Of a stretch of DNA of 64,000 nt, positions 36,577 through 55,052 are shown in pieces (the stretch's first letter is position 1; every line of letters begins with the position of its first letter). The notes under the pieces are model-generated. The model did not search any database, was not told where the DNA came from, and was given only the letters and a program-made list of their open reading frames with translations. Source of the stretch: Myxococcales bacterium (GTDB lineage: Bacteria > Myxococcota_A > Bradymonadia > UBA7976 > UBA1532); the NCBI GenBank assembly GCA_020633435.1, contig JACKDP010000002.1:631788-695787 (forward strand), in the 5' to 3' direction. The position numbers and the translations under genes were made by a program.

Positions 36577-39500
36577 CTACAGCTCCCGGCAGTCCGCCGG
36601 GATCTCCCGGGCGCCGAAGGAGTAGGGCCGGGCCTGCTTGACCAGCAGCCGGCGCTCGGGGCCGAGGAGCTTCAGCTCCACGTCCATCGCGAACCAGCGG
36701 TCCGCGCCCGCGGGATCGATGAGCGGGCGGAAGTGATCGTGGATGGCCTTCACGACGCACGCGGTGTGGATGATCTCGTCGTCGCTCAGGATGGGCTCGC
36801 CCCGGGTGAGGCTGCTGCGGCCCAGGATGTTGATGCGGGGCTGCCGCACGTACCGGTAGATGATCTGCTCGGTCGTCACGCCGGGGGCCGGGTTCGTCAC
36901 CGTCGCCTCGCCCCGCTGGATGTTGATGTAGGCGTCATCCCGGATGGGATCGATGATGTTGCGGGTGATCACGACGCCGTTGGCCTGCTCCGACAGGAAC
37001 GCCGGCTGGATGAGCACCCCCATGGCGACGCCATCCTGGGCGATGCCGTGGTAGGCGCGCTCGTCGAAGGCCCGGGTGTTGTAGAGGCTGGCCCAGACCA
37101 CCCGCAGGGCGTCCGCGATGGAGGCGTCGTTGTCCCCCAGGCGCCCGCTCGTCGAGGTGTAGAGCCCGGCCCCGTTGAAGCCGGGCAGGTCCTCCGTGTT
37201 GCTGCTGCTGCGGAAGCGGACCTTGGCGTCGCCGTAGTGCTGGGCCACGTAGGCCTCCACCTCGGCGAGCACGGCCGGATCGACGGGGTGGCGCCGGATG
37301 AGGTCGCGCACCTCGGCCAGGCCGGCCGCCCGGACGACCGGATCGGCGAAGTCGGGCCGCGCCTGGAGGGCGGCCAGCCGATCGAGGGCCCCGCTCGCCG
37401 CGTAGTGGTCGAGCGAGTGCGCCAGCGCCAGGCCAGCGGCGTCCCGGGGCACCTCCACCGGGCCCTCGCAGCCGCGGCGGCGCGAGACGACCCGCCCCAG
37501 CTCCGCGAGCTGGGCTGCCTTGGCGCCCACGCGGGGCAGATCGGCGATGCCGAGGCCCGCCAGCGGCAACACCCCGCGGGCCTCCCGATCGAGCCGCGGC
37601 ACGAGGGGCTCGCCCTGGGGCAGGCGCGCGTCCCAGAAGGCCTGGGCCTCGGCCGGGTCCGCCACCTCCAGGTCGAAGCCCCCGCCCCGCACGTTCAGGC
37701 GCACGAGCTGGCCCAGCAGGGCCGCGACGCGGGGGTCCTGGCGGGCGTCCCGCAGGGCCATGTTCGGGGTGTTCCGGTTGCGGGACAGCAGGTTGACGTG
37801 GGCCAGCGGCGTCTGGAACGCCTCGGTGATGAGGCCCCCGACCAGGGCGATGTCGTTGGGCACCTGGTCCGTGACGACGATGGTGCGCGGCCCCAGGGGT
37901 GTCGTCGCCAGGTCCTGGGTGGGCACGAACGTGAGCACCCCGAAGCCCACCGTCTCGGTCAGCGGCTGGTACACCAGATCCCGGAACGGCGCGTTGGGCC
38001 CGACCAGCGGCGCGAGGCCCCCGAGCGCAGCCATCTCCTCCACCTGGTCGCCGGTCTGCGGCCGCAGGAAGAACGCCTGCGGCTGCAGGACGTGGTTCAT
38101 CACCCCGAAGAAGGCCCGTCGCATCTGCTGGGCGATGATGTTGTCGCCCGGCGTGAACTCGACGGTGTGCAGCCCCGAGCCCCCGTGGTTGACCAGCGTC
38201 CCCAGCAGGTAGATGCGGTCCTCCACGCTGAAGTAGTTGATCTCACTGAAGGTTCGCCAGCCGATGCGCTGCTCGGCCTCCTGGACGGGATCGCAGCGGT
38301 CCAGGTGTGGCAGCCCCTCGATCTCCTCGCGCACGAAGGTGTAGTGCAGGTCCCACGCGGTGCTGAGCAGGTGCACGACGTCGCCGTTGGCCATGTCGAC
38401 CACGAACTTCACCGACTCGATGCCCGACGCGACGCCGCCCCCGCCGAGGGCGGCGAAGTCGCCCGGCGTGCGCAGGTGGCGGACGCGGTTGCCCACCGGC
38501 CGGCTGGCGAGCGGATCGCAGGCGTCGTTGGCGGCGCCCGGCGTGGCGCGGGCGCAGAAGCGGAAGCGGCCGGTCGCGTCGGGCTGGCGGGTCAGCGCGG
38601 CCCCCTCGGGCCACCACATGAAGTCGACGCGCTCGACGGGGAAGGCGCGGCCGTCCGCGAAGAGCGTCACGACGCCCTCGTACTCGGGCTCGGCGGCGAT
38701 GGGGGCCATGGCCGCGGCGGGCACGGGCACGGAGACGCGGGCCCCCGGCTCCAGGCGCGGGACGGGCCAGGCGAGGGCGGCCCCCTCCCCGACCACCGGC
38801 CACGGGACGCCCGGGCGGTGGGGCGCGACGCGCAGGTGGAAGCCCTCGAGCTCCACCACCTCGCCCGTCACGTTCAGCACCTCGATGAAGCCGGCTGGCC
38901 GCAGCGCGAGCTCGGTGATGGCGAGCGGCGTCGGCGGGAAGGGCCACGGATCTGCCCACTCATAGGGCGGGTACTCCACGTCGTCGGGGATCTCCGGCGG
39001 CGGCGGCGGGCCGCAGCGGCCGCCGTTGCTGCGCTCGGGCGTCGCCCAGCGGCAGAGGACGGGCTGGCCCCGCCCATCCGGGTAGCGCTGGAAGCTGTCG
39101 TTCGGCGTGGCCGGGGGCAGCTCGAAGGCGTCGATGCGCCGCCCCCCCGGGCTGAACAGGTAGAGCGTCTCGCCCCCCGCCGAGAGCTTGAACGGCAGGT
39201 GCCGCGGCCCCTGGGCCGGGGTGTCGTCCGCCCAGAACACGGCGGTCTCGCCCGGTCCCAGCTCGATGGCCGGCAGCGGGTGCCGCTCGTCCGGGTCGTC
39301 GGAGGCGCTGTAGCCGGCCAGCGACAGGGGCGCGTCGCCGGTGTTCACCAGCTCGAACCAGTCATCCGCCTCCCCCACCTCGTCGACCCAGGCGCCGTCG
39401 TTATCGGACATGGCCTCGTTGATCTGGATGGGATCCGGCGGCGGGCCGGCGTCCACGACCGCGTCGACGACGGCGTCCACCACCGCGTCGACGGGCGCGG

Positions 39501-39738
39501 CGTCGAGGGGCGCGGCGTCCCGGGCGGCCGCGTCCACGTCGGCGTCGCGGGGGGTCGCGTCGACCTGGGCGTCGCGGACGGTGGCGTCGACCCGGGCGTC
39601 CGGGGGGCCGGCGTCCATCACCCGCCCGTCCGCGGGCGGGCGGGCGTCGGTCGGCCGGGCATCCACGGAGCCAGCGGGGCCGTCATCACAGGCCACCCCG
39701 ACCAGCGGGAGGAGAATCCAGAGGAGTGTCGCGCGCAT
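36577..39738 (-). CDS. lipoprotein (1053 aa) with an N-terminal lamin-tail domain (LTD) and a C-terminal PPDK_N-type (PEP synthase/pyruvate phosphate dikinase N-terminal, ATP-grasp-like) domain
   Basis: Lipobox signal MRATLLWILLPLVGVAC. The LTD is IQINEAMSDNDGAWVDEVGEADDWFELVNTGDAPLSLAGYSASDD. The C-terminus has FRSSSNTEDLPGFNGAGLYTSTSG...VVWASLYNTRAFDERAYHGI...VAMGVLIQPAF...ANGVVITRNI, the nucleotide-binding signature of the PEP-utilising enzyme N-domain. Confidence 0.7.
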   Translation of the reverse strand: MRATLLWILLPLVGVACDDGPAGSVDARPTDARPPADGRVMDAGPPDARVDATVRDAQVDATPRDADVDAAARDAAPLDAAPVDAVVDAVVDAVVDAGPPPDPIQINEAMSDNDGAWVDEVGEADDWFELVNTGDAPLSLAGYSASDDPDERHPLPAIELGPGETAVFWADDTPAQGPRHLPFKLSAGGETLYLFSPGGRRIDAFELPPATPNDSFQRYPDGRGQPVLCRWATPERSNGGRCGPPPPPEIPDDVEYPPYEWADPWPFPPTPLAITELALRPAGFIEVLNVTGEVVELEGFHLRVAPHRPGVPWPVVGEGAALAWPVPRLEPGARVSVPVPAAAMAPIAAEPEYEGVVTLFADGRAFPVERVDFMWWPEGAALTRQPDATGRFRFCARATPGAANDACDPLASRPVGNRVRHLRTPGDFAALGGGGVASGIESVKFVVDMANGDVVHLLSTAWDLHYTFVREEIEGLPHLDRCDPVQEAEQRIGWRTFSEINYFSVEDRIYLLGTLVNHGGSGLHTVEFTPGDNIIAQQMRRAFFGVMNHVLQPQAFFLRPQTGDQVEEMAALGGLAPLVGPNAPFRDLVYQPLTETVGFGVLTFVPTQDLATTPLGPRTIVVTDQVPNDIALVGGLITEAFQTPLAHVNLLSRNRNTPNMALRDARQDPRVAALLGQLVRLNVRGGGFDLEVADPAEAQAFWDARLPQGEPLVPRLDREARGVLPLAGLGIADLPRVGAKAAQLAELGRVVSRRRGCEGPVEVPRDAAGLALAHSLDHYAASGALDRLAALQARPDFADPVVRAAGLAEVRDLIRRHPVDPAVLAEVEAYVAQHYGDAKVRFRSSSNTEDLPGFNGAGLYTSTSGRLGDNDASIADALRVVWASLYNTRAFDERAYHGIAQDGVAMGVLIQPAFLSEQANGVVITRNIIDPIRDDAYINIQRGEATVTNPAPGVTTEQIIYRYVRQPRINILGRSSLTRGEPILSDDEIIHTACVVKAIHDHFRPLIDPAGADRWFAMDVELKLLGPERRLLVKQARPYSFGAREIPADCREL

Positions 39739-39782
39739 GGCGCCAGCATAGCGGGCCCGGGCGCACGGGCCCAAGGGCCGCC

Positions 39783-40736
39783 TCAGCGGCGCAGGCGCGC
39801 GGCCTCCAGCGCGGCCTGCAGCTCGGTGGGATCCAGATCGACGCCGATCATCACCAGCGTCGTCCGGGGCGTCTCATCGGCCCGCCACCGCCGCGCCGTC
39901 TGCAGGCTGAAGAGGTCGTGCACGCCCTGCAGCACCACCCGGCGGCCGCCGCCCGCCCGGATGACACCCTTGTACCGATAGAGATCGTAGGGCCGCTCCC
40001 GCGACAGGCGGCGCAGCCAGGCGCCGAGCCGCCGCAGATCGTGCGGGCCGTCATCTTCGAGCACCACGCTGCCGAACGGATCGTGGGCGTGGCCGCCGAC
40101 CCGCACCAGCCGCCGCAGCCGGAAGCGCCCGAAGGCGTCCACGTCGAGCACCTGAGCCGGCTCGACGGCGCCGTGCAGCGCCTCGATGCGGGTCGCCGTC
40201 GGGTTGGCCTCGGCCAGGCGCGCGCTCACGGCCGCCATCGCCTCCGCGTCCACCAGGTCGGCCTTGCTGACGACCAGCACGTCGGCCAGCGCCACCTGCG
40301 TCTGGGCCACCGGGCTGTTGCGCAGGTCGACGATGCCGTGCCGGGCGTCCACGACGGTGACGATGGCGTCCAGGCGGAAGGCCTCGGCGATCTCGTCGCG
40401 CCGGCTGAACGTCTCGGCCACCCCCGCCGCGTCGGCCATGCCCGTCGTCTCCAGGATGACGCGGTCGAAGTCGATGTGCCCCCGCTTGCGCGCCTCGATG
40501 AGCGACCGGAACGTGTGCCGCAGGTCCACCTCGACGGCGCAGCAGATGCAGCCGTTGACCCGCCGCACCATGCCCGGGCTGATCTCCTCCAGGAGCTCCG
40601 AGTCGATGTTGGCGGCGCCGAACTCGTTCTCCACGACGACCACGCGGTGGGCGTCGATGTGGCGCAGCAGGTGCCGCAGCAGCGTAGTCTTCCCGGCCCC
40701 CAGGAAGCCGGTGAGGATGGTGACGGGCGTCGTCAT
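39783..40736 (-). CDS. COG0523/CobW-family G3E GTPase (putative zinc metallochaperone)
   Basis: ILTGFLGAGKTTLL (P-loop), the GCICC metal-binding motif, SKADL, and a CobW C-terminal domain. The start overlaps the stop of the upstream MutH-like gene (ATGA). Confidence 0.85.
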   Translation of the reverse strand: MTTPVTILTGFLGAGKTTLLRHLLRHIDAHRVVVVENEFGAANIDSELLEEISPGMVRRVNGCICCAVEVDLRHTFRSLIEARKRGHIDFDRVILETTGMADAAGVAETFSRRDEIAEAFRLDAIVTVVDARHGIVDLRNSPVAQTQVALADVLVVSKADLVDAEAMAAVSARLAEANPTATRIEALHGAVEPAQVLDVDAFGRFRLRRLVRVGGHAHDPFGSVVLEDDGPHDLRRLGAWLRRLSRERPYDLYRYKGVIRAGGGRRVVLQGVHDLFSLQTARRWRADETPRTTLVMIGVDLDPTELQAALEAARLRR

Positions 40737-41377
40737 GCGGGCAGCCCCAGGGCCCGGGCGACCAGGGCCTTGTGCGCATAGAACCCCACGAGATCACTCT
40801 CCTTTCCGCCGCGCGGCCGCGGGTGCACGAGCTGGCCGATGCGGCCGCTCAGGGCGTGGCGCCCCTCCCGCTGGACGACCCAGCGGATCTCCTCGTAGTC
40901 CTCGCGGACGGTGGCCAGCAGGGCCGGATCGTCGAGGTCGAAGGCCGACGCCCCGAGCACGATGGAGCGGGCCTCGGCGGACCCCTCGAAGCTGCGGGCC
41001 ACGACGATGAGGTGCCCGAGCTTCTCCAGCAGGTGGGAGTCCTCGAACTCGGTGACCTCCAGCTCGGCGGGCGTGAAGGCCGTGATGGCCATCGTCTCCT
41101 TGAGCCGCCACTGGCCATCGGCGCCGGCCACCAGGGGCACGACCTTCAGCTCCCAGTCGCCGAAGTCGGGCGCCTGCAGCGAGTCGGGCCGGCGGCCCAG
41201 GTAGCGCTCGACGGTGTGGCCCGCCCAGCCCTTGTTGCGGCGGCCGTCGATCCAGACGGTCACGCCGAAGGAGTCCGCGAGGGGGCGCAGGTCGCGCCCG
41301 CGCAGGGCGGCCAGGCGCACGAGGGCCTCGGCGCGGGTCAGCGGCGGTGGGGCCGGCAGCAGCTCAAGCTGGCTCAT
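40733..41377 (-). CDS. MutH/Sau3AI-family (GATC-nicking-type) endonuclease homologue
   Basis: 214 aa from the internal ATG at 41377. NKGWAGHTVERYLG...APDFGDWELKVVP (the D-x(n)-E-x-K catalytic core, as in E. coli MutH DFAALGVELK), LKETMAITAFT, FEDSHLLEKL and VREDYEEIRWVV are all collinear with MutH. The upstream part of the long ORF overlaps the divergent gene. Confidence 0.75.
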   Translation of the reverse strand: MSQLELLPAPPPLTRAEALVRLAALRGRDLRPLADSFGVTVWIDGRRNKGWAGHTVERYLGRRPDSLQAPDFGDWELKVVPLVAGADGQWRLKETMAITAFTPAELEVTEFEDSHLLEKLGHLIVVARSFEGSAEARSIVLGASAFDLDDPALLATVREDYEEIRWVVQREGRHALSGRIGQLVHPRPRGGKESDLVGFYAHKALVARALGLPA

Positions 41378-41505
41378 GCGCGCATGATGCCCGCCGCCGG
41401 TGGGGAAATGAAGGCCGGGGACACACCAGAGGTTCCCGGAGGCGCGGCAGGGCGCTAGACTGCGCCGCCCGGCCTCCTGGCCCACTCTGCACGAGGAGCT
41501 CGATC

Positions 41506-42325
41506 ATGCGCATGTCTTCCCTGACCCTGGTGGCGGCCCTGCTCGCCCTCGCCGCGTGCAACCCCGCCGACAAGCCCGGGGCCGCCCCGGCCAGCGCCGC
41601 CCCGCGAGCGCGGCGCCTGCGAGCGCGGCGCCGGCCACCGCGGCGGCTGCCCCGCGACGGCGGCGCCCGCCAGCGCCGAGGCCCCCGCCACCGCGGCGGA
41701 CGCCCCGGGCGACTCGGCCGCCGACACCGGCCAGGGCACCGCGGCGGGCGCGGCCAACCCCGCCCTGCTCGATCCCAGCAAGGCCACCGAGACCGCCCCC
41801 GACAAGTACACCGTCAAGTTCGAGACGACGAAGGGCGACATCCTCATCGACGTGGAGAAGGCCTGGGCCCCCAGGGGCGCGGATCGCTTCTACAACCTCG
41901 TGAAGATCGGCTACTACGACGACGTGGCCTTCTTCCGGGTCATCGGCGGCTTCATGGCCCAGGTGGGCATCAGCGGCGTGCCGGAGCGCAACAGCGTCTG
42001 GCGCAACGCCCGCATCGACGACGACCCGGTCAAGGGCAGCAACACCCGCGGCATGGTCACCTTCGCCACCGCCGGCCCCAACACCCGCACCAGCCAGTTC
42101 TTCATCAACTTCGCCGACAACAGCCGGCTCGACCGCATGGGCTTCGCGCCCTTCGGCAAGGTCCGCGACATGGCCATCGTCGACGCGCTGCACGCCGGCT
42201 ACGGCGAAGGCTTCCCCCGCGGCCAGGGCCCCGACCAGGGCAAGCTGCAGGCCGAGGGGAACACCTACCTGCGCAAGGACTTCCCCAACCTCGACTACAT
42301 CAAGAAGGCCTCCATCGTCCCCTGA
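41506..42325 (+). pseudogene. cyclophilin-type peptidyl-prolyl isomerase lipoprotein, disrupted or mis-assembled: signal peptide, Ala/Pro linker and PPIase domain lie in three different frames
   Basis: Frame 1 (ORF 41347..42351) encodes the lipobox signal MRMSSLTLVAALLALAAC...APASAAP, then Arg-rich nonsense. Frame 0 (ORF 41556..41903) encodes the (ASAAP)n linker. Frame 2 (ORF 41852..42325, with upstream extension) encodes DKYTVKFETTKGDILIDVEKAWAPRGADRFYNLVKIGYYDDVAFFRVIGGFMAQ, the cyclophilin fold. Two 1-nt deficits in C-runs within a 15-bp tandem repeat (CGAGCGCGGCGCC x2) would restore one ORF. Confidence 0.6.
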
Positions 42326-42347
42326 CGACGGCCCCCCGAGCATCCCA

Positions 42348-43373
42348 GTGAACGCCGATCTGCCCGGCCAGACGCTCCCCCTCGACGCGGGCGCGACCCT
42401 GGTGGTCGGCGCGCCCATCCGCCACGTCGACCCCCTCTCCTGGTTCCTCGGGCGCACGTCGTCCGGGGCGTCCGCCGTCATCGCCGTGACGATGGAGCCG
42501 CCCGCGCCGCGGCTCGACGCCGACGCGGTGGAGCGCCGACTGGGCGCGCTGCGGGGCCTGGCGCTGCCCGGCATCGCCGCGCCGCTGGGCTTCGGGCTGC
42601 TCGCCGATGGCCGGCTCTGGCTGGCCTGGCCGCAGGTGAGCGGCCACCCGCTGATCGAGGAGGTCCCCGAGGGGGCGGACGCCCCGACGCTGTTGCTGCA
42701 GGCGCTGCAGGCGCTGCGGCGCGTGCACGCCCTCGGCCTCGGCCACGGTCGCCTCACGCTGGCGTCCATCGTCGTGCAGCGCGTGCCGCCCGCCGGGTGG
42801 ATCACGCAGATCGTCGATCTGGGGGTGAGCCGGCTGATCGGTGAGCCGCCACCGGATGGGGGACAGGCGGCTGACCGGCTGGCGGCCATCGGGCTGGTGC
42901 GGCTGGCCCTGCGCGGGCCCGCGCAGCGAGACCGGGCCCTCGCCGAGGGCCTGCGCGATCTGGAAAAGGCTCACGATCTTCATGGGTTGGCGGAGCGCGT
43001 CCGCCGCCTGGTGGTGCCCCCCTCCCCGGTCCGGCGGGCCTCGCGAGTGGCGGTCGTGCTGCTCCCCGGCCTGCTGGCTGCGGCGGCCGGCGCCGCCGGG
43101 GTGCTCTGGTGGTTTGGCCGCGGCGCCCCCACCGAGGCCCCACCCGACGCCATCGCGCTCGGCGGCACCACCTTCCCCGACGCGGCGCCGGTGCGCGCGG
43201 TGCTGCCCCCCACCCGGCCGGAGGACGCGGCTCGCCCGTGGCTCGCCCCGTGGACGCGGCCGTCGCGGGTCCGGACGCCGCGCCCGCCACCGTGGCCGGC
43301 CCGGACGCCGCGCCGCCGATCATCGACGCCGCGGTGCCCAGCGCCCCGACGCCGCGGTGCCCAGCGCCCCTGA
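42348..43373 (+). CDS. membrane protein with a degenerate protein-kinase-like (pseudokinase) domain and one TM helix; its C-terminal DAAVPSAP-repeat and coiled-coil region continues in other reading frames to ~43719 (frameshifted or mis-assembled)
   Basis: GTG start. The relic catalytic-loop and DFG regions are LRRVHALGLGHGRLTLASIVV and IVDLGVSRLIG, but there is no Gly-loop or catalytic Lys. The TM helix is VAVVLLPGLLAAAAGAAGVLWWF. Downstream, the PDAAVPSAP repeats and an AEVARAEAARAQAEIEQLKAALEAA coiled coil are read in frames +2 and +1 (ORFs 43109.. and 42841..43719). Confidence 0.5.
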   Translation: MNADLPGQTLPLDAGATLVVGAPIRHVDPLSWFLGRTSSGASAVIAVTMEPPAPRLDADAVERRLGALRGLALPGIAAPLGFGLLADGRLWLAWPQVSGHPLIEEVPEGADAPTLLLQALQALRRVHALGLGHGRLTLASIVVQRVPPAGWITQIVDLGVSRLIGEPPPDGGQAADRLAAIGLVRLALRGPAQRDRALAEGLRDLEKAHDLHGLAERVRRLVVPPSPVRRASRVAVVLLPGLLAAAAGAAGVLWWFGRGAPTEAPPDAIALGGTTFPDAAPVRAVLPPTRPEDAARPWLAPWTRPSRVRTPRPPPWPARTPRRRSSTPRCPAPRRRGAQRP

Positions 43374-43669: not shown

Positions 43670-44578
43670 TCAAGGCCGCCTTGGAGGCGGCGCGGCCGGC
43701 GGCGCCGCCGAGCCGCTGACGGCCCCGCCCACCGGGGCCCGCACCACCCACAGCCCCGACGCCAGGATGAGCAGCCCGCCGAGCGGCGCGAGCGCCGGCA
43801 GGCGATCCCCCAGCACGAGCGCCCCCGAAGCGACCCCCACCATGGGCTCCAGGTAGGTCAGCACGCCGGCCTTGGCCGCCGAGACGTGCTGCAGGCCCCA
43901 CAGGAAGAAGAGGCCGCCGAGCGTCCCCGCGAGCGCCGCGCCGCCCATGATCCAGACGACGCCCCCCAGCGTCGGCGTCGGCGCCATCAGCGCCACCGGC
44001 AGCAGCAGCAGGCCTCCGATCCAGGTGTGCCAGACGAGCAGCTCGGCGGGCGTGAGCACGCTGCCCGACCGCTTCAAGATGAGGACCTGGGCGGCGTAGA
44101 AGAAGGCGGACGCCGCCCCGAGGAGCCCGGTCAGCGCCGCGGGGCCGATGGCGAGGACGTCGCCGCCGAGGAGCAGGCCGAGGCCGAGCAGCGCCACCGG
44201 CAGCGCCACCACCACCTGCCAGCTCGGCCACCGCCGCAGGATCAGCGGCGATCCCAGGGCCACCAGCACCGGCGCGAGGTAGTGCGAGAGCACCGCCACG
44301 GGGACGGGGCCGCGGTGCAGCGCCTCGAAGTACAGCCAGGCGTTGGCGGCGTCGGTGATGCCCGTGGCCCACAGCGGCCACCAGGCCGCGAAGCCCCGTG
44401 GGATGCGCCGCGGCAGCCAGGGCACCGCGCACGTCCCCATGGTGATGAGCGCGATGCAGCCCGCCAGCGGGCCGGCGATGCCCGAGAAGTGGATGGCCAG
44501 GCCCCACAGCCCCCAGAGCGAGGCCGAGAGGCCGATGGCGAGGCTGCCGCGCAGCTGGAAGTCGGGGGCGGTGGTCAT
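43670..44578 (-). CDS. DMT superfamily transporter (EamA-like, 10 TM helices)
   Basis: 302 aa with ten hydrophobic segments and a duplicated EamA-like organisation (for example AWLYFEALHRGPVPVAVLSHYLAPVLVAL). The 3' end overlaps, convergently, the tail of the preceding repeat-protein region. Confidence 0.8.
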   Translation of the reverse strand: MTTAPDFQLRGSLAIGLSASLWGLWGLAIHFSGIAGPLAGCIALITMGTCAVPWLPRRIPRGFAAWWPLWATGITDAANAWLYFEALHRGPVPVAVLSHYLAPVLVALGSPLILRRWPSWQVVVALPVALLGLGLLLGGDVLAIGPAALTGLLGAASAFFYAAQVLILKRSGSVLTPAELLVWHTWIGGLLLLPVALMAPTPTLGGVVWIMGGAALAGTLGGLFFLWGLQHVSAAKAGVLTYLEPMVGVASGALVLGDRLPALAPLGGLLILASGLWVVRAPVGGAVSGSAAPPAAPPPRRP

Positions 44579-44694
44579 GGCGCCCTCATGCCCGAGGCGG
44601 CGCGCGGACGCAACGACGGCGACACTCCCCCTGGTCCCGGGGGTCCGAAGTGTGGATCATGCGGGGCGACGGGGGCGCGCTCCAGGGAGGGATC

Positions 44695-47600
44695 ATGTCT
44701 GCACGGCCAAACCGGGTAATCCGTATTCTTTTCGCGGCGTTGCTGCCACTCTGGGGCGGCGGCTGCAGCGAGGATGACGGATCGGGGAAGGTCGCAGACG
44801 CGGCCCAGGACGCCGCCCAGGGGCGCCAGGACCAGTTCCGGCCGCAGCCGGACATGCAGCCGTTCGACCTGGCCGTCGTCCCGCCGCCCCGCGACGCGGC
44901 GGTGCCCGACGCCGCGCCGCTGGACGCCAGCCCGCCCGACATGGCCGTGCTGCCGCCCGACATGGCCGTGCTGCCCCCCGACATGGCGGTGTCGCCGCCC
45001 GACATGGGTGCCCCCGACATGGGCTGTGCGGCGCGGGAGACGTGCCATAACGGCATCGATGATGACTGCAACGGCATCGTGGACGACCCGCTCGTCTGCG
45101 ACCAGGAGCTGCCGCCCTGCGTGGCCGACATGCCCTGCTTCACCGGGCTCGTGGGCGTCTGCGCCGTCGGCACCAGCCGCTGCCCGAACGGGCCGGAGGG
45201 CGAGGCGGCCTGCGACGCCCTGGAGCAGCCGGCGGCCGAGGTCTGCGATGGCGCCCTCGACGAGGACTGCGATGGCAACGTCGACGAGGGCTTCGGCCTC
45301 GACGAGCCGTGCGAGGCCGGGGTCGGGAGTTGCCGCGCCCTCGGCGTCTTCGAGTGCGCCCCGGACGGCGGCGCGCGCTGCACCGCCGCCCCGCGGGGCG
45401 CCCGCCTCGAGCGCTGCGATGGCATCCCGGCCGACGAAGACTGCGATGGCACGGTGGACGAGGGCTTCGAGGACCTGGGCCAGCCCTGTCAGGTAGGCCT
45501 GGGCATCTGCGAGGCCGCGGGCGAGATCATCTGCGCGGCCAACGGCATCAGCACGCGCTGCTCGGCGCGGCCCGCGGGCCCCGGCAGCGAGTTGTGCAAC
45601 CAGGCCGACGATGACTGCGATGGCCGGGTGGACGAGGTCTTCCCGGAGCTGGGCCAGGCCTGCGTGCTCGGCCTCGGGGCCTGCCGCGCCGAGGGCGTGC
45701 GCGTCTGCTACAGCGAGAACCGGACGTACTGCAACGCCCAGCCGGGCCTGCCCGACCTGGAGACGTGCAACGCCATCGACGATGACTGCGATGGCAACAC
45801 CGACGAGGGCCCCGATGGCCGCCCGCTGACGGTGGCCTGCTACGGCGGCCCCGAGGGCACCGCCGGCGTCGGCCTCTGCCGCCAGGGTCGGCGGGCCTGC
45901 GGGGCCCAGGGGCTCGGGGCCTGCGAGGGCGAGGTCGATCCCGCCGAGGAGATCTGCGACGGCAGCGACAACGACTGCGATGGCCGCGTGGACGAGGGGG
46001 TCGACGGGGCGCCCATCCGCCAGCCCTGCTACGCCGGGCCCGACGGCACGGCGGGCGTGGGGGCCTGCCGCCAGGGCAACCGGACGTGCCGCAACGGGGC
46101 GCTGAGCCTCTGCGAGGGCCAGGTCCAGCCCCGCGTCGAGATCTGCGACTCCCTCGACAACGACTGCAACGGCCAGGTCGACGACGTGGCGGTCGGCGGC
46201 TGCGACTGCGTCCCGCTGGTGCGCCGCGCGTGCTACTCGGGGCCCGACGGCACCGAGGGCGTCGGTCGCTGCCGGGCGGGCAACCAGAACTGCCGCGCCG
46301 ACGGCACGGGCTACGGCGAGTGCTTCGACGAGTTCACGCCGAGCGCGGAGGCCTGCAACGGCGAGGACGACGACTGCGACGGCCGGGTGGACGAGGAGGT
46401 CGACGGCATCGGCGCGGCGTGCAACGTGGGCCTGGGGGCCTGCGGCGCGGCGGGCGTCTTCATCTGCGATCCGGCGCGGGGCCCGCGCTGCAGCGTGAAC
46501 GCCGGCGAGCCCAACCCCGAGACCTGCGATGGCATCGACAACGACTGCGACGGCGCCACGGACGAGCAGTTCCGGCTGGGCCTGGTGTGCCGGCTGGGCA
46601 TCGGGGCCTGCGCCCGCCAGGGCGAGGTCATCTGCGCGCCGGATGGCAGCACCTCCCAGTGCTCGGTGGAGCCTGGGCAGCCCGAGGAGGAGCGCTGCGA
46701 TGGCCTCGACAACGACTGCGACGGGCGCAGCGACGAGGGCCTGAACCTGGGCCTGCCCTGCGAGGTCGGCGTGGGCGCCTGCCTCGCGCGGGGTGTCCGC
46801 GTCTGCGGCAACGACGGGGTGGTGAGCTGCTCGGTCGCCCCGGGCGCCCCCCAGGCCGAGCGGTGTGACAGCCGCGACAACGACTGCGATGGCTCGACGG
46901 ACGAGGGCTTCGGGGTCGGCGACGCCTGCACGGCGGGCCAGGGCGTCTGCGCCCGGGACGGCCTGCGCCAGTGCTCCGCCGCCGGCGGCGTGGAGTGCAG
47001 CGCCGCGCCCGCGCCCGGCGGCGCGGAGCTCTGCGACGGCGAGGACAACGACTGCGATGGGCGCACCGACGAGGACTTCGCGCTCGGCGTGGCCTGCGCC
47101 GCGGGCGTCGGCCAGTGCCGCGCCAACGGCCAGACGATCTGCGCCGCCAACGGCCAGGGCACGACGTGCGGGGCCCAGCCCGGCGCGCCAGCAGCCGAGA
47201 CGTGCGACGACCGCGACAACGACTGCGATGGCCGCGCCGACGAGGACTTCGACCTGGGCAGCGCGTGCACCAACGGCGTGGGCGCCTGCTCGCGGGCCGG
47301 CGTGACGCGGTGCCAGGGGGGCGTGGCCGCCTGCGACGCGGTGCCAGGCCAGCCCCGGGCCGAGACGTGCGAGGGCACCGACCAGGACTGCGATGGCCGC
47401 ACCGATGAGGGCTTCCCCGTCGGCGACCGCTGCGAGGCGGGGGCGGGCGCGTGCCTGGAGGTCGGCGTGACGCGCTGCCTGGCCAACGGCCAGATCGAGT
47501 GCAGCGCCCGGGCCCATGACCCCGAGCCCGAGCTCTGCGACAGCCGCGACAACGACTGTGATGGGCGCGTGGACGAGGGCTTCGCGCTGGGCCAGGCGTG

Positions 47601-50600
47601 CAGCCGGGGCCAGGGCATCTGCCTGCGGGACGGCACCACGCGCTGCGGCCAGAACGGCCAGCTCGAGTGCAGCGCCCTGCCGGGCGTCGGCCGGGCCGAG
47701 ACGTGCGACGGCCGCGACGAAGACTGCGACGGCCGCACCGATGAGGGCTTCCCGGTGGGCCAGCCCTGCGAGGCGGGCGTGGGCGAGTGCTACCGGGCCG
47801 GGATGCTGCAGTGCGCCATCGGCGGCGGCACCCAGTGCAGCGTCCAGGCCGGCGCCCCGCGGGCCGAGCGCTGCGACGCGGTCGACAACGACTGCGATGG
47901 GCGGTCCGACGAGGGCCTGAACCTGGGCCAGGCCTGCATCGCGGGCGCGGGCCAGTGCGAGGCCGAGGGCACGCTCGCCTGTGGCCAGGCCGGCGCGGTC
48001 ATCTGCCAGGCCGAGCAGCCGATGGGCGGCGCCGAGGAGTGCGACGACCTCGACAACGACTGCGATGGCCGCGTCGACGAGGGCGGCGTCTGCCCCGACC
48101 TGGAGCCGCCGGACGTCACGCTGCTGCTGGAGCCCGTCTTCGTGCTCTTCAACGGCCTGGCCCGCGTCACGGTGACGGTCACCGATGACCAGGATCCCGA
48201 TCCCCAGGTCACCGCGACCATCGACGGGATGCCCATCCCCCTCGACGCCAACGGCCAGTACCTCTACCAGGCCAACGAGGCCGGGGCGCACGAGGTCGTG
48301 GCCGTCGCGGTGGACGCCGCCGGCCGCCGGGGCGAGGCGCGCGACTACTTCCGCGTCCAGAACCTCGACGACAACGAGCCGCCGGTGGTGCGCATCATCG
48401 CGCCCGCCGACACCAGCGAGCTGACGGGCGTGACCGAGATCCATGGCCGCCTGGAGGACCCGAACTTCTTCTCGTGGAAGCTCGAGATCAGCTTCGACCA
48501 GCAGAACTGGCAGGTCATCAACACGGGCATGACCAGCGGCCCCGACGTCATCGTGGGCTCGATCGATCCCACCGTGATGGCGCCTGGCTTCGTCTACGTG
48601 CGCCTGACCGGCGAGGACGAGAACAGCCTCAACCAGTTCCAGATCGTCACCTACCGCGTGCCGGACGGGGTCTCCCTGGGCGAGACGAAGCTGGGGATCC
48701 GCGACTTCGAGATGCCGGTGAAGGGCTTCTCGCTGGCCTTCGACCGCGAGTACGACAGCCGCCGCAAGTACCTCGACGGCGACTTCGGCTTCGGCTGGAA
48801 GCTCACGGCCACCCGCGTGGAGGTGCGCGAGGACCTGCAGAGCAACGTCATGGTCGCGCTGCCCGATGGCCGCCGCGAGGTCTTCGCGATCGCGTACAAC
48901 TTCCCGGGATTCTTCCCCTTTGGGACGATGAGCTACGTCGCGCCGCCGGGCGTGTACTCCACACTGACGTCGCCTCAGGCCTGCGCCGTGGCCAACACGG
49001 CCCAGGGCGTCGTCTGCTTCGACACGGGCCGGCCGCCCTCTTTCAGCGTCTCGAACTACGTGCTGACCACCCAGGACGGCACCCGCTACGAGATCCATGA
49101 CCAGCGCGGCCTGGACCGGCTCACCGATCGCGAGGGCAACCAGTTCACGTTCGCCCGCGACCGCATCACGTCCAACGTCGGCGTCGAGATCACGATGGCT
49201 CGCGACGCCTTCGGGCGCATCACGTCCATGACGGACCCGCGGGGCGGCATCATCGAGTACCGCTACGACGCGGTGGGCAACCTGACGGAGGTCGAGGATC
49301 AGGCGGGCGGCGTGCAGACCTACGTCTACGACGACGAGCACGGCCTGCTGCGCGTCCTCGGGCCGGACGGCAACCCGGTCATCCGCACCGAGTACGACGA
49401 GGACGGCCGCAAGGTCCGCGACGTCGACGCCCTCGGCAACGAGACCGTCTACGACTACGACTTCGACAACCGCATCCAGACGGTCACCAACCGCCGCGGC
49501 GACGTCATCGTCTACGAGTACAGCGAGATCGGGCAGATCCTGTCCCGCGTCGACGAGATGGGGAACGAGGCCACGTTCGACTACAACGCCCTCGAGCAGC
49601 TCGTCGGCGAGACCCTGCCGGATGGCTCGACGTTCGGCTACGCCTACGACGCCCGGGGCAACCAGACGCGGGTGACGCTGCCGACCGGCGAGTCCAACAC
49701 CTTCGCCTTCGACGCCTTCGGGCAGCCCGTCGCGATGACGGACCCGGCCGGGCACGTCAACCGCATGACCTACGACGCCTCGGGGCGGCTGACGTCCATT
49801 GAGAACGGGGCCGGCCACGTCCTGACGCTGGAGTACGACGCCAACGGCAACCGCCAGGCGGTCGTCGAGCCCGACGGCCAGCGGACGACCTACGGCTACG
49901 ACGCCCTCGGCAACATCACGAACATGGCGCGGGACGGCGGGTTCACCCGGACGTACGCCTACAACGCCGCCTCCGAGATGACGCGGCTGGTGGACTCCGA
50001 CGGCAACGCCATGGACCTGGACTACGACGCGGTGGGCCGGCTGCAGCGCGTGGTCGACCCGCTCGGCGGCGAGATCATCGCCGAGCGCGACGGCCTGGGG
50101 CGCATCACCCGCCTGACGGACGCCGATGGCTCGGTTCGCCGCTACCGCTTCGAGCCCCGCGGGCTGATGGAGGCCATCACCGACCCCAACGGCGGCGAGA
50201 CGACCTACGCCTACGACGCCGAGGGCGCGCTCGTCGGCCTGACCTACCCGGATGGCGCCGAGGTCCAGCTCACCCGCGACGCGGGCGGGCGCATCACCTC
50301 CCGGCGCGATCCGCTCGGCAACGTCGCCAGCTACCAGCTCGACGCCATGGGCCGGGTCATCAGCCGCACGGACCGCAACGGCGATCCCATCGTCTACGAG
50401 TACAACACGCTCGGTGACATGGTCCGGCGGAGCGACGCCGACGGCGAGACGACCTACGAGTACGACACGGTCGGCCGCCTGACGCGGGTCGTCAGCATCG
50501 AGGACGTCATCGTCTACGAGTACGACGAGGACGACCGCCTCGTGGCCGAGGAGCCCCTGGCCGGCTTCCGCCTGGAGCACACCTGGGACGCCGCCGCGCG

Positions 50601-52212
50601 CCGGGCCGCCACCCGCGGCCCCGAGGGCGAGTCCACGTTCGACTACGACGCCGGCGGCCGCCTGGCCACCGTGGACGACCCCGTCCTCGGCCCCATCGAC
50701 TTCGTGCGCAACCCCGAGGGGCGCCTGACGGGCATCCGCTACCCCAACGGCGTGGCCATCGACTACACCTACGACGCCATGGGCCGCCCCGTCCGCTGGG
50801 AGGCCCGCGCCGCGGGTGGCGCCGTCGTGGCCGGCGAGACGTGGACGTTCGACGCCGTCGGCCGCCCCACCCGCGTCGAGCGGGAAGACGGCCGCACGTT
50901 CGAGCTGACCTACGACGCGGCGGGCCAGATCACCCGGTCCGTCCTGCGCACCAACGGCGCCGTCACGCGGGACGTGGCCTACACCTACGACGCCCGCGGC
51001 GGCATGACCTCGCGCACCGTCAACGGCCAGCTCGCCGCGCACCAGCTCGACGCCGACCAGCGCCTCACCCGCGACGGCACCTGGACGTACCGCTACGACG
51101 CGGCCGGCAACCTGGTGGAGCGCACCCGCCTCGATGGGGCCGGGCGTGAGGCCTTCACCTACGACGCCGAGCGCCACCTGACGTCGTTCGCGCGCTTCAA
51201 CGGCCAGGGCGTCCAGCAGGCCGGCGTGATCTACCGCTACAACGGCCAGGGCGAGCGCGCCGCGCGCGTCGAGGGCGGCGTCGAGGAGCAGTACGCGACC
51301 AGCTTCGGCGAGCGCGGCTGGGTGCGCAGCCCGGCGGGCCAGACCACCCAGCGCTTCGTCTACGGCGACCAGTCCGACCAGGCCCTGGCCCTCGACAAGC
51401 CCGACGGCCCCGTCTACTTCGCCCTCGACGGCCGCGGCAGCGTGGCCGCCGCCTTCGACGGCGCGGGTCAGCTCGTCGGCCGCTACCTCTACGACGACTT
51501 CGGCGCCCTGCTCGACCAGGCCGGCCCCTTCACCTCGCCTCTGGGCTTCGAGGGCCGGCCCCGCGACCCGACGACGGGCCTCTACGACTTCCGCGCCCGC
51601 AGCTACGACCCGGCGGCGGGCCGCTTCCTCCAGCAGGACCCCGAGTCGGGCAGCCTGCAGCGGCCCATCACCCAGCACCCCTACCTGTATGGCGCCAACA
51701 GCCCGTGGTTCTACCGCGATCCGAACGGCCGGGCGGCGGCCATCAGCTACGCCTTCCTGTCGAGCCGCTTCGTCACGGGCTCCGGCAACGTGAACACGCC
51801 GAGCCATGGCGAGCTGCTGGGCGCGTTCATCGGCTTCATGCACGGCTTCTCGGCGGGCGCCTTCGTCTTCCTGGCCAACATCCTGGAGCTGAGCGGCACC
51901 GGGCAGGACATCAAGACCATCTGGGGCATCGCGACGAGCCGCACCAAGACGAAGCTCGACGAGATCGCCAACCTCCTCGGCCGCGGCGCGGCCCTGGACG
52001 ACAGCGGCTTCGCCGGCGCTTTCGTGAACGGCGCCAAGTTCCAGGTCGGCTTCAAGTTCTCCCTGAAGCTGCCCAAGCCCGTCAGCAAGGGCATCGCCCT
52101 CGCCGGCGGCAAGACGTCGAAGGGCGTCTGGGCCATCGAGAAGAGCGGTGGCGGCTTCAAGGAGGGCAACAAGCAGTTCCTGAACTTCCTGGAGCAGGTC
52201 GGCCCGCAGTAG
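44695..52212 (+). CDS. Rhs/YD-repeat polymorphic toxin lipoprotein (2505 aa): lipobox signal, PPDMAVL repeats, about 18 MopE-type Cys-rich repeats, YD-repeat shell, RHS repeat-associated core, C-terminal toxin domain of unknown type
   Basis: GGGAGGG RBS. The signal is MSARPNRVIRILFAALLPLWGGGCS. About 18 repeats carry E-x-CDG-x-DNDCDG-x-x-DEGF...C...G-x-G-x-C (for example ERCDSRDNDCDGSTDEGFGVGDACTAGQGVCARDG). There are dozens of YD repeats (YDAVGNLT, YDDEHGLL, YEYDTVGRLT and others). The RHS core is GLYDFRARSYDPAAGRFLQQDP...HPYLYGANSPWFYRDPNG, followed by about 160 aa of non-repetitive sequence with a hydrophobic stretch (LLGAFIGFMHGFSAGAFVFLANILEL). Confidence 0.85.
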   Translation: MSARPNRVIRILFAALLPLWGGGCSEDDGSGKVADAAQDAAQGRQDQFRPQPDMQPFDLAVVPPPRDAAVPDAAPLDASPPDMAVLPPDMAVLPPDMAVSPPDMGAPDMGCAARETCHNGIDDDCNGIVDDPLVCDQELPPCVADMPCFTGLVGVCAVGTSRCPNGPEGEAACDALEQPAAEVCDGALDEDCDGNVDEGFGLDEPCEAGVGSCRALGVFECAPDGGARCTAAPRGARLERCDGIPADEDCDGTVDEGFEDLGQPCQVGLGICEAAGEIICAANGISTRCSARPAGPGSELCNQADDDCDGRVDEVFPELGQACVLGLGACRAEGVRVCYSENRTYCNAQPGLPDLETCNAIDDDCDGNTDEGPDGRPLTVACYGGPEGTAGVGLCRQGRRACGAQGLGACEGEVDPAEEICDGSDNDCDGRVDEGVDGAPIRQPCYAGPDGTAGVGACRQGNRTCRNGALSLCEGQVQPRVEICDSLDNDCNGQVDDVAVGGCDCVPLVRRACYSGPDGTEGVGRCRAGNQNCRADGTGYGECFDEFTPSAEACNGEDDDCDGRVDEEVDGIGAACNVGLGACGAAGVFICDPARGPRCSVNAGEPNPETCDGIDNDCDGATDEQFRLGLVCRLGIGACARQGEVICAPDGSTSQCSVEPGQPEEERCDGLDNDCDGRSDEGLNLGLPCEVGVGACLARGVRVCGNDGVVSCSVAPGAPQAERCDSRDNDCDGSTDEGFGVGDACTAGQGVCARDGLRQCSAAGGVECSAAPAPGGAELCDGEDNDCDGRTDEDFALGVACAAGVGQCRANGQTICAANGQGTTCGAQPGAPAAETCDDRDNDCDGRADEDFDLGSACTNGVGACSRAGVTRCQGGVAACDAVPGQPRAETCEGTDQDCDGRTDEGFPVGDRCEAGAGACLEVGVTRCLANGQIECSARAHDPEPELCDSRDNDCDGRVDEGFALGQACSRGQGICLRDGTTRCGQNGQLECSALPGVGRAETCDGRDEDCDGRTDEGFPVGQPCEAGVGECYRAGMLQCAIGGGTQCSVQAGAPRAERCDAVDNDCDGRSDEGLNLGQACIAGAGQCEAEGTLACGQAGAVICQAEQPMGGAEECDDLDNDCDGRVDEGGVCPDLEPPDVTLLLEPVFVLFNGLARVTVTVTDDQDPDPQVTATIDGMPIPLDANGQYLYQANEAGAHEVVAVAVDAAGRRGEARDYFRVQNLDDNEPPVVRIIAPADTSELTGVTEIHGRLEDPNFFSWKLEISFDQQNWQVINTGMTSGPDVIVGSIDPTVMAPGFVYVRLTGEDENSLNQFQIVTYRVPDGVSLGETKLGIRDFEMPVKGFSLAFDREYDSRRKYLDGDFGFGWKLTATRVEVREDLQSNVMVALPDGRREVFAIAYNFPGFFPFGTMSYVAPPGVYSTLTSPQACAVANTAQGVVCFDTGRPPSFSVSNYVLTTQDGTRYEIHDQRGLDRLTDREGNQFTFARDRITSNVGVEITMARDAFGRITSMTDPRGGIIEYRYDAVGNLTEVEDQAGGVQTYVYDDEHGLLRVLGPDGNPVIRTEYDEDGRKVRDVDALGNETVYDYDFDNRIQTVTNRRGDVIVYEYSEIGQILSRVDEMGNEATFDYNALEQLVGETLPDGSTFGYAYDARGNQTRVTLPTGESNTFAFDAFGQPVAMTDPAGHVNRMTYDASGRLTSIENGAGHVLTLEYDANGNRQAVVEPDGQRTTYGYDALGNITNMARDGGFTRTYAYNAASEMTRLVDSDGNAMDLDYDAVGRLQRVVDPLGGEIIAERDGLGRITRLTDADGSVRRYRFEPRGLMEAITDPNGGETTYAYDAEGALVGLTYPDGAEVQLTRDAGGRITSRRDPLGNVASYQLDAMGRVISRTDRNGDPIVYEYNTLGDMVRRSDADGETTYEYDTVGRLTRVVSIEDVIVYEYDEDDRLVAEEPLAGFRLEHTWDAAARRAATRGPEGESTFDYDAGGRLATVDDPVLGPIDFVRNPEGRLTGIRYPNGVAIDYTYDAMGRPVRWEARAAGGAVVAGETWTFDAVGRPTRVEREDGRTFELTYDAAGQITRSVLRTNGAVTRDVAYTYDARGGMTSRTVNGQLAAHQLDADQRLTRDGTWTYRYDAAGNLVERTRLDGAGREAFTYDAERHLTSFARFNGQGVQQAGVIYRYNGQGERAARVEGGVEEQYATSFGERGWVRSPAGQTTQRFVYGDQSDQALALDKPDGPVYFALDGRGSVAAAFDGAGQLVGRYLYDDFGALLDQAGPFTSPLGFEGRPRDPTTGLYDFRARSYDPAAGRFLQQDPESGSLQRPITQHPYLYGANSPWFYRDPNGRAAAISYAFLSSRFVTGSGNVNTPSHGELLGAFIGFMHGFSAGAFVFLANILELSGTGQDIKTIWGIATSRTKTKLDEIANLLGRGAALDDSGFAGAFVNGAKFQVGFKFSLKLPKPVSKGIALAGGKTSKGVWAIEKSGGGFKEGNKQFLNFLEQVGPQ

Positions 52213-52237
52213 GCCGGCCGCCCCGGCTGGAGGTCCT

Positions 52238-52729
52238 ATGTCGGTCTTGCTCTCGGTGGCGCTGCTGGCGCCGCCCACCTGCGCCCCCGAGGCGCTCGCC
52301 AAGGTCGAGGAGGCGCTGGCGCAGGCGCCCGCGAAGCGTGCCCACGCGCTCGCCCTGCAGGGCGTGTCGGAGGCCTGCGCCCTGCCACCGAAGCTGGCGG
52401 CGGGCGTGCGGGGCGTGGCGGCCGCCCCACCCGACCAGGTCGCCCTGCTGGAGGCGCGGTGCATCACCCAGGCGACGGACCTGTGGACGCAGGCCTGCCC
52501 GGCCGGCGTGAAGGTCTTCGCCCAGCTCGCGAGCGCGGCCCCGGACGCCCGCCCGGCGCTCCTCCTCGCCGCCTGCCAGCTCGACCGCTTCGGCCTCACC
52601 CTGGCCCAGCTGCAGGGCGGGGACGTCTCGCCGCTGGGCGTCATGCTGGCCGCCGTCGTGCACGGTCCAGGCCGCGCCGCCCTCGTCCAGGCCCTCGTGC
52701 TCTCCCCCCGACCGGAGGCAACCCCTTGA
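52238..52729 (+). CDS. small protein (163 aa) immediately downstream of the Rhs toxin gene; candidate cognate immunity protein
   Basis: Starts 26 nt after the Rhs stop with a GGAGG RBS. The Ala/Leu-rich sequence has conserved Cys residues and a hydrophobic N-terminus (MSVLLSVALLAPPTC). The position is the one usually occupied by RhsI-type immunity genes. The stop overlaps the TTG start of the next gene. Confidence 0.45.
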   Translation: MSVLLSVALLAPPTCAPEALAKVEEALAQAPAKRAHALALQGVSEACALPPKLAAGVRGVAAAPPDQVALLEARCITQATDLWTQACPAGVKVFAQLASAAPDARPALLLAACQLDRFGLTLAQLQGGDVSPLGVMLAAVVHGPGRAALVQALVLSPRPEATP

Positions 52730-54201: not shown

Positions 54202-54243
54202 GACCGGCGCGGTCCCGACCCGGGTCCCGACGAGGAGCTGCGA

Positions 54244-54897: not shown

Positions 54898-54930
54898 GCC
54901 AGCCCAACCCGCGCCCGCCCGGGTCCTACC

Positions 54931-55052
54931 GGTCCTACCGGGTAGCCCGGCGAGCGGGTGCACCCGTGCCGCGCTGCTGGAATCTGGCCATCCCGGTCAT
55001 ACCGGGTAGTCCGGTGGAATGGTGCAACCGTGCCGTGGGACTGGAATCTGGC
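54931..55052. repeat. two tandem ~58-bp direct repeats (54931..54988 and 54995..55052, ~80% identical), each containing the palindromic core CCGGT-nnn-ACCGGG/TACCGGGTA; REP-like element adjacent to the IS200-like transposase gene
   Basis: Copy A is GGTCCTACCGGGTAGCCCGGCGAGCGGGTGCACCCGTGCCGCGCTGCTGGAATCTGGC. Copy B is GGTCATACCGGGTAGTCCGGTGGAATGGTGCAACCGTGCCGTGGGACTGGAATCTGGC. They sit in the convergent intergenic region 3' of the RAYT gene, with an extra GGTCCTACC duplication at the left edge. Confidence 0.65.

Follow-up and report, generated by a model that had tools for sequence, protein, structure and literature searches.

A MutH-type endonuclease gene in a Myxococcota/Bradymonadia lineage with MutL proteins that lack the endonuclease motifs

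Strand discrimination by MutH in DNA mismatch repair is, according to reviews, limited to some Gammaproteobacteria, while every other MutL carries an endonuclease of its own (PMC4390886, PMC3848065). MutH is confined to a subset of that class (PMC4390886), and the motif DQHA(X)2E(X)4E is shared by all MutL homologues, with the sole exception of those from gammaproteobacteria with a MutH (PMC3848065). Here we describe a gene for a MutH-like endonuclease in a 64-kb stretch of DNA (hereafter, the window; contig JACKDP010000002.1, assembly GCA_020633435.1) from a Myxococcales metagenome-assembled genome (MAG), where it overlaps the gene of a COG0523 (CobW/YjiA-type) GTPase and is followed, on the same strand, by the gene of a putative lipoprotein (Table 1). 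Coordinates refer to the whole window unless a relative is named, and handles of the type L001 and P0297 denote fetched relative loci and protein clusters, respectively. With a probability of about 0.5, we propose that the MutH-like gene encodes the nickase of a MutH-dependent mismatch repair pathway, which would have evolved in parallel from a GATC restriction nuclease, accompanied by decay of the MutL endonuclease site. A literature search, with most subscription journals outside its reach, did not turn up any account of MutH-type repair in Myxococcota.

MutH of E. coli and H. influenzae (PDB 1azo, 2azo, 2aoq, 2aor) is, like the 214-aa window protein, a single-domain enzyme (229 aa). The window protein matched the Pfam MutH family (PF02976) with 36.2 bits against a cut-off of 23, and a profile of its own family aligned with MutH over the full length (E = 2e-14). 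When its AlphaFold2 model (predicted local distance difference test, pLDDT, 90; predicted template modelling score, pTM, 0.86) was compared with the PDB using Foldseek, the best matches were the MutH–DNA complexes 2aoq and 2aor (template modelling score, TM, 0.76 and 0.74; E = 1e-12). Second came Sau3AI, a type II enzyme of the same superfamily that recognises GATC (PDB 4pxg; E = 1e-10 by structure, 5e-9 by sequence). Unlike the window protein, which has a single domain and no linked methylase, Sau3AI consists of two MutH-like domains (~490 aa, the C-terminal one being an effector domain) and is accompanied by a C5 methylase.

The catalytic core that an earlier note on this DNA had read as that of a MutH homologue is indeed present: the motif APDFGDWELKVVP carries D71, E76 and K78, the equivalents of MutH D70, E77 and K79, and E57 and K119 correspond to MutH E56 and K116. 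D71 and K78 are invariant across the Myxococcota clade, and invariant or nearly invariant equivalents exist for MutH K48-G49-W50, E56, D70, E77, K79, E91, H112, K116, R184 and F211-Y212. The spacing between the catalytic Asp and Glu is 4 residues, as opposed to 6 in MutH. According to a 2026 cryo-electron microscopy study of MutL–MutH, E56 is a ligand of metal B, H112 pulls the DNA and K116 positions water, and MutL binds MutH helix 147–167 in E. coli (bioRxiv 10.64898/2026.04.21.719898); Y212 senses the methylation state (PMC3848065). Helix 151–171 of our model is the equivalent of this MutL-binding helix, with REDYEEI in place of REDWEEL. The positions with which MutH reads GATC and its methylation are conserved as N48-K-G-W, R187-P-R/K and F199-Y200. 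Roles in GATC reading were reportedly assigned to MutH K48, R184 and K186 in a 2005 paper on the MutH–DNA structure. Given the fold match, the conserved residues and the equivalent of the MutL-binding helix, sequence and model together predict a single-domain, catalytically intact endonuclease of the MutH type, within the Sau3AI superfamily. Its active site is of the Mg-type PD-(D/E)XK.

As in MutH-using hosts, the MutL of the host lineage lacks the endonuclease motifs. In two relatives, L084 and L009, mutL lies within 10 kb of the MutH-like gene (at ~9 kb), and the C-terminal domain of the encoded protein reads D[IV]AAAR.RVRFDRL where endonuclease-type MutLs have DQHAAHER(I/V)LFEQL; CPHGRP and the ACR/ACH motif are missing as well. 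Cluster representatives were searched exhaustively with this divergent C-terminal domain, and then with a full-length profile. Of the 119 closest MutL clusters, 73 are devoid of DQHA(X)2E(X)4E as well as of CPHGRP, with the N-terminal GHKL ATPase motifs intact in all of them. Both endonuclease motifs are retained in the MutLs that come next in similarity, which stem from other Myxococcota and from deltaproteobacterial MAGs. The motif-less mutL is found in the canonical mutL-miaA arrangement. The MutL attributed to the window's genome (P0297, MCB9548195) has DALLGVDVEAARAQVAHAAL and PSGGPAW at the two endonuclease-motif positions, and is 78% identical to P0309, the MutL of the sister genome, in line with the sister relationship of the window and L001; even in its degenerate form, the C-terminal domain has stayed conserved between these two MutLs. 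In GenBank, P0297, P0309, P0288, P0289, P0303, P0310 and ~70 further clusters bear the name 'DNA mismatch repair endonuclease MutL' despite the loss of the motifs.

The MutH-like gene and a motif-less MutL occur together in nine genomes, almost certainly including the window's own. The two share a contig in the pairs P0055/P0288 (242,042 bp), P0035/P0303 (81,034 bp, Bradymonadia), P0061/P0273 (124,516 bp) and P0004/P0408 (268,961 bp), as well as in L009, and an assembly in L007/P0289 (KLAP118). Further pairs were matched by nearby GenBank accessions (P0067/P0310, P0089/P0318-P0404 and P0394/P0309; accession pairs MCK6571500/MCK6571366, MBU1431226/MBU1430385 and MEZ4474956/MEZ4472553, the last from the assembly of L001). 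For the window, the accession numbers of the MutH-like protein (MCB9546079) and P0297 differ by 2,116, against an average of ~5,600 proteins per genome in this submission series, and P0297 almost certainly belongs to the window's own genome. The earlier note had assumed a stand-alone MutH without a MutL context. This premise is contradicted, because the MutLs of the window's genome and of eight related ones have lost their endonuclease motifs, which is the state of MutL in MutH-using gammaproteobacteria.

The wider family counts no fewer than 803 protein-database clusters and is present in at least 464 species genomes, spanning Myxococcota, Bradymonadia, Acidobacteriota (Blastocatellia, Pyrinomonadaceae), cyanobacteria and others. 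Clustering of neighbouring open reading frames (ORFs) over 170 loci showed that 46 of the 101 evaluable loci with <55% identity to the window protein have a beta-class adenine methylase (PF01555) directly upstream and in the same orientation; the closest solved relatives of these methylases are CcrM and a DpnA-type enzyme. Four loci of the Pyrinomonadaceae type have a Dam-family methylase instead, above the TIGR00571 cut-off (Table 1). GATC systems such as those of the DpnII and MboI type carry Dam-class and DpnA-class adenine methylases, and distant members of the present family adjoin both classes. The DpnII and MboI nucleases themselves belong to a different Pfam family from the MutH-like protein and, unlike in such systems, the linkage with a methylase has been lost in the window's clade. 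Judging by these neighbours, the distant relatives (<55% identity; cyanobacterial and others) look like nucleases of restriction-modification (R-M) systems.

In a neighbour-joining tree, the Myxococcota/Bradymonadia sequences formed one methylase-less clade, sister to the methylase-linked grade, and a second methylase-less clade (Blastocatellia) was nested inside that grade. Since its nearest relatives are methylase-linked nucleases, the MutH-like enzyme appears to have arisen independently of MutH. The conserved DNA-reading residues, together with the adenine methylase classes found beside relatives, make GATC the most likely recognition site of the predicted enzyme, with sensing of methylation. 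Specificity of the MvaI/BcnI type (CCWGG/CCSGG), prompted by a weak Pfam match and by the NCBI names of some relatives, was rejected, as neither MvaI nor BcnI matches the protein and its family well by structure or by profile, and the linked methylases are adenine-specific.

Two further observations concern the family outside the window's clade. At Blastocatellia/Pyrinomonadaceae loci such as L034, L035, L038 and L039, a divergent gene for a PolB-type 3'-5' exonuclease and genes for RmuC and an AddB-like helicase-nuclease form a conserved setting ~3–4 kb upstream, a context of the methylase-less clade that hints at another domestication into DNA repair. Asn replaces the catalytic Asp (the equivalent of MutH D70) in 48 of 159 family sequences, giving PNFGSWELK in place of PDFGDWELK, with the other catalytic residues invariant; these members are mostly methylase-linked and come from cyanobacteria and others (e.g. 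L063, L074, L045), and may be restriction enzymes, either active or attenuated, or else proteins that bind GATC.

In the Myxococcota clade, neither methylase class was found within ~8–10 kb of the MutH-like gene at any of the 28 evaluable loci, and the 64-kb window is free of mutL and of Dam and beta-class methylases alike. At 13 loci, a convergent hydantoinase/oxoprolinase gene, the same in each case, lies downstream of the MutH-like gene, and the pairwise identities of the MutH-like and hydantoinase proteins are correlated (Pearson r = 0.82; 78 pairs, 13 genomes). The ratio of non-synonymous to synonymous substitution rates (dN/dS) is 0.07 against L001, the closest relative (93% identity), and the gene is under strong purifying selection in this clade. 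G+C content at third codon positions (GC3) is host-like in all three cluster genes (0.95–0.97). On account of the missing methylase, the conserved position beside the hydantoinase gene, the correlated divergence, the low dN/dS and the host-like GC3, the gene behaves like a resident, vertically inherited housekeeping-type gene, unlike mobile R-M systems; a sporadic, horizontally mobile distribution was not seen at this conserved locus, and the clade is monophyletic in the tree.

A count of GATC, as suggested in the earlier note, gave 310 sites in the window (2.0 times the number expected from composition and 0.86 times that expected from a Markov model), with no sign within it of the GATC avoidance that would be a signature of restriction. 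A GATC-cutting enzyme would kill its host if it were neither kept latent nor faced with methylated DNA. At one locus of the clade, the Myxococcota MAG L084 (9073-9981 and 10674-11699), the gene of a CarH-like MerR/B12-binding regulator lies 20 bp upstream on the same strand, and the MutH-like gene is followed by a convergent uracil-DNA glycosylase gene, with mutL-miaA 9 kb off.

These observations can be arranged into the following scheme. The ancestors of the MutH-like enzyme would have been nucleases of R-M systems with an adenine methylase. In one Myxococcota/Bradymonadia lineage, the gene would have become fixed on the chromosome and been inherited vertically with no methylase adjacent to it, and in the same lineage the housekeeping MutL would have kept its ATPase domain and lost the metal-binding endonuclease site. 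Upon detection of a mismatch by MutS, ATP-bound MutL would activate the latent MutH-like nickase, which would then cut one strand at a nearby GATC, so that excision could start, in parallel with the E. coli scheme. With regard to activation by MutL, the predicted helix 151–171 and the invariant equivalents of H112 and K116 are suggestive only. Of the options raised earlier, that of a domesticated Sau3AI-like enzyme comes closest to the evidence.

Several points weigh against a repair nickase. All genomes concerned are MAGs, and the evidence is computational. The window protein shares just 24% identity with MutH and stays far below the NCBIfam equivalog cut-offs for it (NF003458, 52 vs 243 bits; TIGR02248, 37 vs 230 bits), as it does for Sau3AI, and its presumed GATC specificity is deduced from conserved residues and from the types of neighbouring methylases. 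P0297 was assigned to the window's genome by sequential accession numbers and not by a shared contig, although its orthology with P0309 agrees with the assignment; a second, motif-bearing MutL paralogue may be present in the same genomes. Neither Dam nor SeqA was found in the window or in the fetched loci of the clade, the rest of the genomes not having been searched, which leaves strand discrimination unexplained. Finally, the overlap of the MutH-like and CobW genes, described below, is kept in at least three flank contexts (the window, L083 and L089), beyond what simple decay of synteny would lead one to expect.

The protein could instead be a solitary type II restriction endonuclease, belonging to a GATC R-M system with its methylase elsewhere in the genome, serving in phage defence and having nothing to do with the loss of the MutL motifs. 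In favour of this are the abundance of GATC in the window, which calls for either protection of the host's DNA or restraint of the enzyme, the methylase linkage of the closest out-of-clade relatives (~50% identity) and a REase_II match of the protein in PADLOC (34 bits). We nevertheless consider this unlikely, given the 28 clade loci devoid of a nearby methylase, the stable chromosomal position and the co-inheritance with a housekeeping-type neighbour, both unlike mobile R-M systems. In addition, no defence-island context was seen at the loci inspected, and the repeated co-occurrence with a nuclease-dead MutL would have to be a coincidence.

Purifying selection and vertical inheritance in themselves show merely that the gene has some cellular function, and this could be another housekeeping role in nicking or binding DNA that does not involve MutL, such as a different repair pathway, GATC-based control of replication or segregation, or degradation of unmethylated incoming DNA. 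Such a role would suit the methylase-less Blastocatellia clade, which adjoins RmuC, AddB-like and PolB-type exonuclease genes and not mutL, as well as the uracil-DNA glycosylase gene next to the MutH-like gene in L084. We regard it as rather improbable, because it leaves the co-occurrence with MutL endonuclease-site loss unexplained and because all the catalytic and activation residues of MutH (the latter including the H112 and K116 equivalents) have been retained.

The GTPase encoded by the overlapping gene shares the cobW and CobW_C domains with YjiA, ZigA, YeiR and CobW, and its COG0523 motifs were verified as the P-loop GFLGAGKT (40686-40709; GxxGxGK), ENEFG, CICC (40539-40550; CxCC), ETTG and SKAD. 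It is unlike known COG0523 proteins in staying below every NCBIfam equivalog cut-off (PRK11537/YjiA, the best, 222 vs 361; CobW, 153 vs 332; ZigA, 134 vs 600), so that it has no CobW, YjiA or ZigA equivalog status, in having no His-rich stretch, and in the overlap of its gene with that of a nuclease; cob genes are absent from the neighbourhood. The literature search mentioned above, with the same limit on journals, likewise returned no description of a MutH–COG0523 pairing.

Conservation of the MutH-CobW gene pair in relatives, on which the earlier note had made its interpretation depend, holds at close range and fails beyond it. Direct adjacency was found in 8 of 9 distinct relatives at ≥61.5% identity (L001, L089/L090, L002, L091, L004, L003, L008/L083 and L006), and with such recurrence the arrangement is not due to chance. 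The called genes overlap by 4–14 nt in L083, L089 and L090, and also in L086/L087; L089 and L083 have no lipoprotein gene and different flanks, and in L007 CobW is absent from the locus and the lipoprotein gene directly follows the nuclease gene. At 55–61% identity, CobW lies 3.5–5.2 kb from the MutH-like gene (L081, L014, L016, L129). Between the two in L081 are genes for CNNM/CorC (-), YtkA (+), a multihaem cytochrome (-) and a hypothetical protein (-), three of the four being on the opposite strand. The Bradymonadia locus L085 has a YtkA-cytochrome-hydantoinase block with no CobW, no CobW was found nearby in L084, L092, L013, L010 and L098, and no association of the two genes was found outside the Myxococcota clade. 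Because CobW is missing or distant in these sister lineages, the nuclease does not require the GTPase.

The adjacency is therefore probably a secondary juxtaposition that provides co-expression, in the form of a lineage-specific operon fusion. The CobW and lipoprotein genes would originally have been part of a block of metal and cytochrome genes flanked by the nuclease and hydantoinase genes. When the CNNM, YtkA and cytochrome genes in between were lost, probably in the sub-lineage of the window, CobW would have come to abut the nuclease gene. E. coli yjiA is a cautionary precedent: in the restriction island called the Immigration Control Region, this conserved COG0523 gene stands next to restriction genes simply as the boundary gene (PMC12707154).

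A genuine nuclease–GTPase module, in which the COG0523 protein would act as a metal-insertion chaperone or as a MutL-like nucleotide-dependent activator, perhaps with the lipoprotein as a third component, would account for an overlap and adjacency that persist in 8 of 9 relatives and at least three flank contexts, twice in the absence of the lipoprotein gene. MutH is moreover a latent enzyme in need of a nucleoside triphosphatase activator (bioRxiv 10.64898/2026.04.21.719898), and a COG0523 protein of S. aureus has been loosely tied to genotoxic stress (PMC13339975). The persistent overlap thus leaves some small room for a real functional link, to which we give long odds: sister lineages hold the nuclease with no adjacent CobW or with opposite-strand genes in between, L007 has no CobW at all, the CobW genes of distant loci sit among metal and cytochrome genes, the constraint on CobW is weaker (dN/dS of 0.17 vs 0.07 for the MutH-like gene), the yjiA precedent is that of a mere boundary gene, and nothing supports the suggestion that a dedicated chaperone loads the nuclease with metal, its active site being of the Mg type rather than one for Zn, Co or Ni.

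At the level of the locus, the three minus-strand ORFs proposed earlier are real, in a window with a G+C content of 73.5%, a composition at which spurious ORFs abound. The ATGA in which the stop codon of the MutH-like gene overlaps the CobW start codon, and the 44 bp between the CobW stop codon and the ATG of the lipoprotein gene, are also as first described (Table 1). The MutH-like and COG0523 genes of the window are, judging from this overlap, probably translationally coupled, and we infer that the three cluster genes are likely co-transcribed. A scan of 36000-42000 for promoters and terminators gave nothing exceeding shuffled controls, the 44-bp spacer had no terminator-like site, and no match to the sigma-70 consensus was found in the 128-bp divergent intergenic region. 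The hairpin in the spacer was dropped as a meaningful element, being weak (z = -2.1) and absent as a conserved feature in L001. A four-codon upstream ORF, ATG-CGC-GCA-TGA (41383-41385 to 41374), overlaps the start codon of the MutH-like gene out of frame.

The LTD and PPDK_N domains that had been noted in the 1053-aa lipoprotein were both recovered by Pfam. The protein has a signal peptide with Cys17, a low-complexity linker, at least one lamin-tail domain, a central region that is strongly conserved and has no detectable homologues, and a C-terminal ATP-grasp domain (PPDK_N) of the phosphoenolpyruvate (PEP) synthase type; a profile of nine orthologues matched the N-terminal domains of PEP synthases in the PDB with E = 3e-8. 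Its C-terminal ~300–400 aa thus resemble the nucleotide-binding ATP-grasp domain of PEP synthase and rifampicin phosphotransferase. Unlike those enzymes, it combines a lipoprotein signal with lamin-tail domains, and neither a swivel phosphohistidine domain nor a PEP/pyruvate TIM-barrel domain was detected in it, the central region having no Pfam match even at E ≤ 1. A swivel-histidine motif picked out by eye at residues ~620–665 (VVTDQVPNDIALVGGLITEAFQTPLAHVNLLSRNR.TPNMAL, invariant) is accordingly unsupported. The lipoprotein is predicted to be extracytoplasmic, an odd location for an ATP-grasp domain, as ATP is not expected there.

Table 1. Positions of the cluster genes, their sequence elements and boundaries in the window, and of Dam-family methylase genes at relative loci
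Feature	Position	Strand	Details
MutH-like endonuclease gene	41377-40733	-	214 aa; GenBank MCB9546079.1, H6706_09525, annotated 'hypothetical protein', Myxococcales MAG; sequence identical
COG0523 (CobW/YjiA-type) G3E GTPase gene	40736-39783	-	317 aa; Pfam cobW 155 bits, CobW_C 78 bits
LTD/PPDK_N putative lipoprotein gene	39738-36577	-	1053 aa; Pfam LTD 50 bits, PPDK_N 68 bits
Catalytic motif DFGDWELK of the MutH-like gene	41144..41167	-	Translation checked; D71, E76, K78
ATGA stop/start overlap of the MutH-like and COG0523 genes	40733..40736	-	Direct sequence reading
Spacer between the COG0523 and lipoprotein genes	39739..39782	-	44 bp; GGGCCC...GGGCCC hairpin
Divergent intergenic region	41378..41505	.	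128 bp; presumed promoter region for the cluster and the divergent lipoprotein gene
Upstream boundary: divergent lipoprotein-like gene (MRMSSLTLVAALLALAAC...)	41506..42351	+	No Pfam match; common to L001 only
Downstream boundary: convergent HYR-domain ORF	33683..36310	+	Pfam HYR 27 bits
Dam-family (TIGR00571) methylase beside the MutH-like gene	L117 5683-6480; L020 8622-9401; L043 9034-9783; L103 9-455		

Elsewhere in the window, an 889-aa ORF (30666-33335, +) is a homologue of the eukaryotic Major Vault Protein (MVP), with Pfam matches to MVP_shoulder (41 bits) and a Vault_3 repeat (32 bits) and a phmmer match to the rat and human MVP structures (E = 9e-22, residues 306–865 against MVP 274–842). 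Its sequence looks like that of a full-length bacterial MVP homologue, encoded ~3 kb downstream of the cluster. At 74% G+C, and with a 2520-aa ORF overlapping on the opposite strand, a 3462-aa ORF (44575-54963, -) with no Pfam match is possibly spurious. A 1524-aa ORF (10701-15275, +) has a weak match to Met-zincin (DUF4953).

If the proposal is correct, a second lineage with an intact MutH-type nickase and a nuclease-dead MutL would constitute a natural replicate of the gammaproteobacterial transition. It would make testable how a restriction enzyme is recruited into repair, what compels or allows the loss of the MutL nuclease, and whether strand marking by methylation is a necessity. The GenBank labels 'DNA mismatch repair endonuclease MutL' and 'hypothetical protein' are probably both wrong for this lineage. 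The fuller version, in which the lineage evolved MutH-dependent and probably GATC-methyl-directed repair by domesticating a restriction nuclease while its MutL endonuclease site decayed, as probably happened in the ancestry of E. coli, and one sub-lineage coupled its nickase translationally to a COG0523 GTPase, maybe as a new accessory factor, is more tentative. The CobW link is its weaker part; if true, it would provide the first nuclease client or partner of a COG0523 protein.

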